Assembly (NCBI GenBank): GCA_964016885.1
Contig: OZ024740.1
Coordinates: 248,930,001 to 248,994,000, forward strand
Length of the DNA stretch: 64,000 nt
Origin: Eledone cirrhosa
Taxonomy: Eukaryota
Direction of reading: 5' to 3'
Under the pieces are notes generated by a model, which was not told the DNA's origin, made no database searches, and was given only the letters and a program-made list of their open reading frames with translations. Positions 11,835-13,035 of this stretch are shown one piece after another; positions within the stretch are counted from its first letter, which is position 1, and the number at the start of each line of letters is the position of its first letter. The translations under genes were made by a program, and so were the position numbers.

Positions 11835-12302
11835 GTATATATATATATGTATATAGATATGTATATATATATATATGTATATATATATATGTATATATAT
11901 ATGTATATAGATATATGTATATATATATATATGTATATATATTTACATATATATATATATATACATATATATACATATATATATACATATGTATACGGAA
12001 GTATTAGTATGCATATAAATACACCCATGTATACATATATACATCTACATATGTATACTTCCGTATACATATGTAGATGTACACTTTAACTTAATTGTTT
12101 AAGCGTCAGTCATACAAAAGTGAGTTAGAAGCGAAACGAAATTTAATTTCGTTTCGTTATTTGTTTTTATCGTTTCCGCTGAACCGGTGCGTACAATGAC
12201 TCACGTTCTATGCAAATTAGTCTACCCACTACTAATTTTCATAGAAAAAGCATATAACGATATGTGCTTTTACAATTCTCCAGAGAAGCCGGAAGATGGG
12301 TA

Positions 12303-12347
12303 AATATTGCTGATGAGATGTAATAACATCGAAACTAGTCCAATATT
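12303..12347 (+). ncRNA. Type I hammerhead ribozyme (H1 copy 1), predicted cleavage after C12340
   Basis: aatattg-CTGATGA-gatgt(aata)acatc-GAAA-ctag-TC-caatatt: complete core, 7-bp stem I, 5-bp stem II, palindromic ACTAGT stem III. Confidence 0.93.
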
Positions 12348-12771
12348 CCTGTCTGGCCCTCTGGAGAATAGAGGAAATGTGTTTCCTTGAAAACTCGTAT
12401 GACTCTAAAACCCGGTCCGTCTGTGTGGTTACATACAGACTAGCTGACACTCACTGTAAAGTGTCTAGTGAAAAACTGAGTACATGTACATATGTATACA
12501 TGTGTGTATTTATATGCATACTAATACTTCCGTATACATATGTAGATGTACACTTTAACTTAATTGTTTAAGCGTCAGTCATACAAAAGTGAGTTAGAAG
12601 CGAAACAAAATTTAATTTCGTTTCGTTATTTGTTTTTATCGTTTCCGCTGAACCGGTGCGTACAATGACTCACGTTCTATGCAAATTAGTCTACCCACTA
12701 CTAATTTTCATAGAAAAAGCATATAACGATATGTGCTTTTACAATTCTCCAGAGAAGCCGGAAGATGGGTA

Positions 12772-12816
12772 AATATTGCTGATGAGATGTAATAACATCG
12801 AAACTAGTCCAATATT
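12772..12816 (+). ncRNA. Type I hammerhead ribozyme (H1 copy 2), predicted cleavage after C12809
   Basis: Identical to 12303-12347. Confidence 0.93.
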
Positions 12817-13035
12817 CCTGTCTGGCCCTCTGGAGAATAGAGGAAATGTGTTTCCTTGAAAACTCGTATGACTCTAAAACCCGGTCCGTCTGTATGGTTA
12901 CATACAGACTAGCTGACACTCACTGTAAAGTGTCTAGTGAAAAACTGAGTACATGTACATATGTATACATGTGTGTATTTATATGCATACTAATACTTCC
13001 GTATACATATGTAGATGTACACTTTAACTTAATTG

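Follow-up and report, generated by a model that had tools for sequence, protein, structure and literature searches.

Non-coding hammerhead tandem repeats of Eledone cirrhosa, probable retrozymes with Penelope-type insertion ends in (TA)n microsatellites

The window analyzed here, a stretch of 64,000 nucleotides of the Eledone cirrhosa genome, contains a tandem array of 469-nt units that belongs to a dispersed repeat family, named here family A. The reading that best fits the genomic copies is that of a non-coding hammerhead tandem retrozyme inserted in (TA)n, which would borrow the reverse transcriptase (RT) and endonuclease of Penelope-like elements (PLEs) and use a circular RNA as template; we assign this full mechanism a probability of roughly 0.6. 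The most informative feature of the family, absent from the preliminary description of this DNA, is its Penelope-type insertion signature, which comprises an inverted 5'-truncated copy (45 pairs in 65 loci), a tail at one end, and a bias to (TA)n.

The tandem array and its ribozymes

The array occupies positions 12055..13036 of the plus strand, where TRF reports a period of 469 with 2.1 copies and 99% matches, and a comparison at lag 469 gives just two mismatches, 12138/12607 and 12425/12894. The units stand head to tail with no terminal repeats, and unit coordinates are counted from u1 (12099 and 12568) to u469 (12567 and 13036). The tandem had been described at first as extending over 11986..13035; this holds for the array proper, whereas 11978-12054 consists of short inverted unit pieces and is not tandem. 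These pieces (approximately u382-455) form the 5' junction at 11978..12058 on the minus strand. The 3' end of the insertion, u465-469 at 13032..13036 (+), is joined to (AT)n. Both flanks, representing the target, are (TA)n-rich microsatellites, located at 11763..11995 on the left and at 13037..13473 on the right, and the right tract continues, with interruptions, to position 18887. A scan of the whole window for direct repeats was dominated by (TA)n. A second, older insertion of the family, also absent from the preliminary description, was found on the minus strand at 25977..26605. It contains 1.3 units with 88-91% identity, retains the same ribozyme core (26207-26237), and has its short-site end in (AT)n. 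The left microsatellite adjoins a 5'-truncated LINE RT fragment at 10754-11762 on the minus strand (RVT_1, E 2e-7), presumably CR1/L2-like and unrelated to the element.

The hammerhead motif is complete in each unit and includes the CUGAUGA core, a 5-bp stem II, a 2-bp helix III with a 2-nt loop, and the GUC site. Hammerhead 1, of type I with an extended stem I, is located at 12288..12357 (+), with the core at 12310-12316, stem II at 12317-12330, GAAA, and the palindromic helix III ACUAGU at 12334-12339. The identical hammerhead 2 is located at 12757..12826 (+) with its core at 12779, so that the two type I ribozymes with identical stems are 469 nt apart (CTGATGA at 12310 and 12779), as had been noticed before. 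The GUC sites predict cleavage after C12340 and C12809, and thus the release of a 469-nt monomer, 12341..12809 (+), in agreement with the excision already proposed; this predicted monomer is the candidate circular RNA. An 11-bp helix (12275..12369 on the plus strand, 12275-12285 with 12359-12369) prolongs stem I and would clamp both ends of the cleaved monomer. In the Rfam scan no hit was obtained at the gathering score; below the cut-off, Hammerhead_HH9 matches both sites with 31.8 bits versus 52 required (E 8.6e-6). Many Rfam miRNA matches, far under the cut-off, were rejected as artefacts of AT hairpins. No ribozyme was found on the minus strand of the unit.

The monomer has a GC content of 36% and, when read circularly, its longest ATG open reading frames are 64 aa on the plus and 22 aa on the minus strand, in agreement with the earlier statement that the unit has no credible ORF. 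Its circular fold has an energy of -152.4 kcal/mol with 70% of bases paired and a z-score of -8.7 against 100 dinucleotide shuffles (-7.2 for the minus-strand fold); thus the monomer is indeed highly structured, as had been suggested. Five of the six hairpins that were listed in support of this suggestion occur in both units. The first one, as written, is found just once, at 12131, which is not part of the excised monomer; within the monomer, G>A at 12607 breaks one of its pairs.

The pairing probability of helix III in the monomer is close to zero, and the core CUG pairs with UAG instead. Since helix III is very weak, cleavage probably needs a ribozyme dimer. ViennaRNA does not predict the dimer helix III in a linear two-unit RNA; however, nested folding shows such helices poorly and therefore this result is uninformative. 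According to the accessible text of PMC4209133, such ribozymes work as dimers and stay silent in circular monomers.

Genomic copies and sister groups

In the genome, 1,463 exact copies of the 31-nt ribozyme core were counted (control, 0). A DNA search of the genome with the unit produced 586 candidates, of which 39 were scored, with 151 matches, nearly all of them 95-100% identical. The family is dispersed, large and young. Among sequencing runs, seven from five studies contain words of the unit, in every case within contigs: at least half of the words in four rows, one of which may be the source itself, a fraction of 0.37 in two and of 0.04 in one; these runs are not counted as evidence here. 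Its organization, one type I hammerhead per short non-coding tandem unit in dispersed dimers to multimers, bears out the non-LTR retrozyme architecture recognized in the preliminary description.

Two looser ribozyme patterns were designed to pick up a coding relative, and yielded sister groups of family A instead. The first pattern has 5,671 matches (control, 8), and 96 of 100 among the matches listed belong to group A', whose units are about 88% identical. Similarly, 98 of 100 among the matches listed for the second pattern (1,507 matches; control, 1) belong to group B with a unit of about 430 nt. Groups A and B are only about 50% alike by alignment score, with the ribozyme core and pairing conserved. 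In particular, both strands of stems I and II, and of a long-range helix, differ between A and B in ways that keep the pairing, and the named ribozyme structure is paired in 84% of cells, compared to 74% after shuffling and no more than 50% after sliding; this covariation comes mostly from one split, A versus B, and thus reflects few independent events.

No ORF separates the units of the arrays, the longest of which spans at least 26 kb, or at least about 55 units. The array at G000:C1:95620990-95646999 (L103-L105), at least 26 kb long, is composed of 469-471-nt units with 95-98% identity, several of which have mutations in the ribozyme core. The same inverted insertion was observed twice, about 17.7 kb apart (L082 and L083; G000:C1, 55.97 and 55.99 Mb), representing either a segmental duplication or an assembly duplicate. 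A third hammerhead tandem family, C, has near-identical 310-nt units, the palindromic helix III ACGCGU and ends in (AT)n; its copies are located on the minus strand in L012 (2679-3344) and L045 (4140-4805).

Insertion ends and target sites

The ends of insertions were mapped in 65 non-redundant loci, namely 38 from the best DNA hits, which are biased to near-identical copies, 26 ribozyme-match loci taken from the first 100 matches on contig 1, and the window; the counts of ends leave out the segmental duplicate L083 and two inner pieces of a long array. Among the 117 arm ends in these loci, 55 lie at u69-73, 53 at u464-469, and nine elsewhere. The family therefore has two fixed 3' ends, the tail end and the short end, approximately 72 nt apart (tail of 72-74 nt). 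The 72-nt tail segment between them, u1-u72, is found in the window at 12568..12639 (also 12099-12170) on the plus strand, and would be flanked by two RT start sites.

In 45 cases two arms are arranged back to back with their 3' ends outward. These pairs combine one short and one tail end in 36 cases, two tail ends in one case and two short ends in none, and the other eight have another end. The window copy is among these eight, its inverted arm being atypically short and reaching neither fixed end. Thus, each arm has its own site in 36 of the 37 classifiable pairs (P 3e-10), and the mirrored flanks of the single tail-plus-tail pair point to a later duplication. Single-arm copies use either site, with 14 tail and 12 short ends. 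After 93 of the 108 fixed ends (AT)4 follows within 16 nt, the 5' truncation of the copies is random, and no clear target-site duplication could be seen in (TA)n. Sister groups A' and B have these two ends as well, the tail of B being 62 nt long. No convincing common structure emerged when tail regions from A, B, P1 and P4 were folded. Group B (L091 3471-4912, L160-L189) is older and is represented mostly by monomers and short inversions; its tail is like that of the coding family P1 described below, and a base pair of its helix II is often mismatched (C-A or U-U).

Back-to-back arms with outward 3' ends resemble the inversions that L1 elements produce by twin priming, and RT fragments of LINEs are common near the copies; mobilization by a LINE of the CR1 or RTE type was therefore considered. 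It is a very improbable source of the pattern, as the copies have no poly(A) and no common LINE 3' end, their second priming site is fixed and not variable, single-arm copies are served by either site, and the PLEs of the same genome obey the same end rule. That the 3' ends are fixed and the 5' ends random, that one arm has the tail and that the targets are (TA)n, as in coding PLEs, also counts against satellite DNA that spreads at the DNA level, by unequal crossing-over or extrachromosomal circles, with a vestigial ribozyme. So does the conservation of ribozyme core and pairing across groups of such low similarity. The variant patterns of local duplication in the long arrays L031 and L034 agree with such a process, but as the cause of dispersal this route is strongly disfavoured and has a very small probability, similar to that of the LINE route.

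Coding Penelope-like elements and the candidate helper

The insertion features of family A are those of PLEs, for which the accessible text of PMC8557442 (Craig et al. 2021) lists 5' truncation, an adjacent inverted truncated copy, a bias to microsatellites and (TA)n, and a 30-40-bp tail, often at one end only. The genome is PLE-rich: GIY-YIG candidates number 10,596; 150 of these were scored, and the unit was compared with 50. One coding Neptune-like family, P1, has an RT, a GIY-YIG domain and the CxxxxCxxC linker as in Neptune and Nematis, with ORFs about 98% alike and 11,539 exact copies of its ribozyme. As a control, the ends of P1 copies were examined, one short end being read by eye. They fall at two positions 62-67 nt apart, with one of each in six of six inverted pairs. 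This identity of the end rule in a coding family makes it very likely that Penelope-type machinery writes the family A copies, by starting reverse transcription at two sites and joining the truncated arms.

The P1 hammerhead (L140 6431(-), L141, L145, L149, L151, and others) has U3-A8 in place of C3-G8, the core UUGAAAA, and the palindromic helix III ACCGGU, and a P1-related family (L096, L134, and others) has the core UUGAUAA. An intact Neptune-like RT-GIY-YIG ORF of 1,025 aa is located in L142 at 2488-5565 (+), with an inverted pLTR and a degenerate hammerhead-like motif, the pLTR lying upstream; its product is a candidate helper. The window itself has broken PLE-like ORF pieces at 56385-59190 (+), without Pfam hits; the 3' region after them contains, at 59000, a hammerhead with a long stem II and AUGCGCAU as the palindrome of helix III, and terminates in (AT)n. 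An inverted repeat in (TA)n at 26681-27060, whose arms are 98% complementary, one of them being about 30 nt longer, is probably another PLE-type inversion with a one-sided tail.

The unit could also be the pLTR of an unsampled coding Penelope-like family, with the arrays as its truncated ends. The type I hammerhead, the palindromic helix III and the tail are all pLTR features, and 24 of 57 retrozyme families of Xenopus match known transposable elements, mostly PLE termini, as stated in the available part of bioRxiv 10.64898/2026.07.22.740005; moreover, the 50 GIY-YIG loci examined here are a small part of the candidates. In L001 (850-1153) the 3' region of a PLE endonuclease is joined directly, without an intervening microsatellite, to u93 of an equally oriented family A copy, a junction that may be a template-switch chimera or an insertion. 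On the other side, none of the 50 compared loci (of 150 scored and 10,596 candidates) has a pLTR homologous to the unit, no PLE ORF is joined at a fixed position to any of the 26 unpaired arms, and no RT plus GIY-YIG ORF was found in the unit or joined to it in register. Thus the unit is not simply a sampled pLTR. The real hits in the GIY-YIG comparison (L150, L151, L134) proved to be separate A- or B-type insertions in microsatellites. PLE fragments occur upstream of three unpaired arms, joined at u93, u230 and u308 to unrelated sequences with no fixed junction. Given also the head-to-tail arrays of at least 55 units and 26 kb with no ORF between them, the independence of the multimers from a coding PLE, which the preliminary description had left to be checked, is upheld. 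An origin from a pLTR is possible, but being a pLTR now does not fit, and we consider this explanation improbable, only marginally less so than the LINE and satellite routes.

Template of the insertions

A cleaved linear monomer, as a template, would cap the arms at about 225 or 300 nt and let them start at the cleavage site. However, 78 of the 117 arms are longer than one unit, and the 5' ends are not concentrated at this site, with 2 of 97 within 5 nt versus 2.3 expected (a count that leaves out eight loci or pieces and the arms starting at u1-3). A cleaved linear monomer is thereby excluded, and the template is either a circle or an uncleaved multimer.

Variation between units was used to distinguish these two. 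A single haplotype is shared by all units in 32 of the 37 loci with several units and in 20 of the 23 with two arms (0.20 by chance), the rest differing at one site; hence both arms of an insertion have a common source. Among 49 young loci, 13 have a further variant that is fixed in every unit, and the same 49 loci have 120 unfixed variants (about 2.4 per locus), mostly private to one unit. Among pairs of loci sharing a unit-private variant, one of ten has the same haplotype (background 0.18), although this inheritance test includes ten pairs only. Since variants are fixed across units and not inherited unit by unit, a monomeric, that is circular, template is favoured, and there seems to be a bottleneck of one monomer through which the variation passes, as would be expected of a circle. 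L037, L039 and L108 each have a variant that is fixed in just one of the arms, contrary to what a single circle copied without error would give, and the long arrays L031 and L034 have higher-order variant patterns of local duplication.

The same Penelope-mobilized element could instead be copied from an uncleaved linear multimeric transcript, the circles being rare, absent or a by-product. All end features and the scarcity of 5' ends at the cleavage site fit this scheme equally well, young source arrays are nearly homogeneous, and helix III is weak. Frangieh et al. 2024 (PMC11167929) found that ribozyme cleavage is dispensable for in vitro transposition and that RNA left unprocessed serves as the main substrate; this and the weak helix III count against a circular template. 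With a linear multimer, however, an additional step from monomer to array would be required before a new variant could be fixed throughout the units and in both arms, as in the 13 loci, and this template fits poorly with private variants that occur at this rate and are not shared within haplotypes. From these patterns of variation, the template of family A is probably the self-cleaved circular RNA, and the uncleaved multimer is the less likely of the two, although much more plausible than the pLTR, LINE and satellite explanations.

Comparison with known systems

Metazoan non-LTR retrozymes of 170-400 nt are described from coral, mussel and axolotl in the accessible text of PMC7229834 (Cervera and de la Pena 2020). 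Family A resembles them in its tandem non-coding units, which have a type I hammerhead each and less than 50% GC, in forming dimers to multimers, in a stable self-paired fold, in the PLEs that co-exist with it, and in a weak palindromic helix III as in axolotl. It differs in the unit length of 469 nt, in the circle, which is a prediction here, and in having no clear target-site duplication in (TA)n. The two fixed ends, the inversion rule and the tail mapped here are not described in that text.

Animal retrozymes are regarded as non-autonomous PLE derivatives by Li, Clavereau and Pollet (bioRxiv 10.64898/2026.07.22.740005, as far as its available text goes), who observed cleavage in only one of nine predicted retrozymes. 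Family A agrees with their retrozymes in the conclusion about a PLE helper and in the occurrence of monomers, dimers and multimers. The preliminary description regarded the unit as large for an animal retrozyme; it exceeds the range given in PMC7229834, but lies inside the 51-972 bp given by these authors, and the claim is not sustained. They argue from co-occurrence and from homology to pLTRs across 31 vertebrates and four invertebrate outgroups, whereas here the basis is the integration signature, with no homologous pLTR among the 50 loci. PLEs are also named as likely retrozyme helpers in the available text of PMC7761336.

Similarly to Neptune and Poseidon PLEs, family A has 5' truncation, partial tandems, an inverted truncated copy, a one-end tail, (TA)n or AT-rich targets, and a hammerhead in the repeat. 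In contrast to them, it has no ORF, its cleavage site lies about 225 nt upstream of the short end, and its tail of 72-74 nt exceeds the published 30-40 nt (62-67 nt in P1). In PMC11167929, AT-rich DNA was cut and extended on both strands by a PLE protein in purified form, and cDNA synthesis began at two internal positions whose distance corresponds to the tail.

The label viroid-like, given earlier to the predicted RNA, is justified in part. Both the avsunviroids and the viroid-like satellite RNAs are small, highly paired and processed by hammerheads from multimers to monomers, and the fold of the monomer (z -8.7) is of this kind. Viroids and viroid-like satellite RNAs have ribozymes in both polarities and no DNA copy, whereas family A is encoded in the genome in thousands of DNA copies and has its ribozyme on one polarity only, with none found on the minus strand of the unit. 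No exact match to the ribozyme was found in viral contigs, and a phage collection gave no match.

In the available main text of the octopus genome repeat annotation (PMC13282606) the word ribozyme is absent. No description of the family or of the tail-and-inversion rule was found in the retrozyme literature searched, which was largely limited to openly accessible papers. The family may be uncatalogued in its lineage, as had been suggested earlier; the class, non-LTR retrozymes, is known, and the degree of surprise is thus moderate.

Model of propagation and its implications

The proposed cycle would start with read-through transcription of an array, followed by cleavage at the GUC sites by two hammerheads sharing the palindromic helix III, the lone monomer ribozyme being largely inactive. 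A host ligase would then close the 469-nt RNA into a circle; RtcB ligated the RNA of other retrozymes to circles in vitro, according to the accessible part of PMC7229834. A Neptune-like RT-GIY-YIG protein may nick both strands of (TA)n, with cDNA starting at u467-469 on one strand and at u72 on the other. Each cDNA would roll round the template until it breaks off, and joining of the truncated ends would yield tandem and back-to-back arrays, the long ones being lengthened by local duplication. The most specific form of this model, in which the PLE RT-endonuclease primes once per fixed site, one site per strand, on a single self-cleaved circle and proceeds by rolling, is put forward tentatively, at slightly less than even odds. 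Several observations speak against the mechanism: the tail exceeds the published lengths, the inverted arm of the window copy is short and atypical, no homologous pLTR turned up in the 50 GIY-YIG loci, and just one of nine predicted retrozymes cleaved in the work of Li, Clavereau and Pollet.

So far, both the enzyme that copies animal retrozymes and the circular template have been proposed from co-occurrence and homology, as far as can be judged from the accessible texts of PMC7229834 and bioRxiv 10.64898/2026.07.22.740005. Family A provides two exact priming sites, a target, and the rule of one site per arm, and its neighbours in the genome are young coding PLEs, including one with the intact 1,025-aa ORF. 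As the sites are mapped and the copies are young (97-100% identity, with traceable haplotypes), both questions can be tested in vitro and genome-wide. If the most specific form of the model is true, the family would prove directly, at the genomic level, that the circles of animal retrozymes serve as intermediates in PLE transposition, and the PLE tail would mark which strand was primed where.
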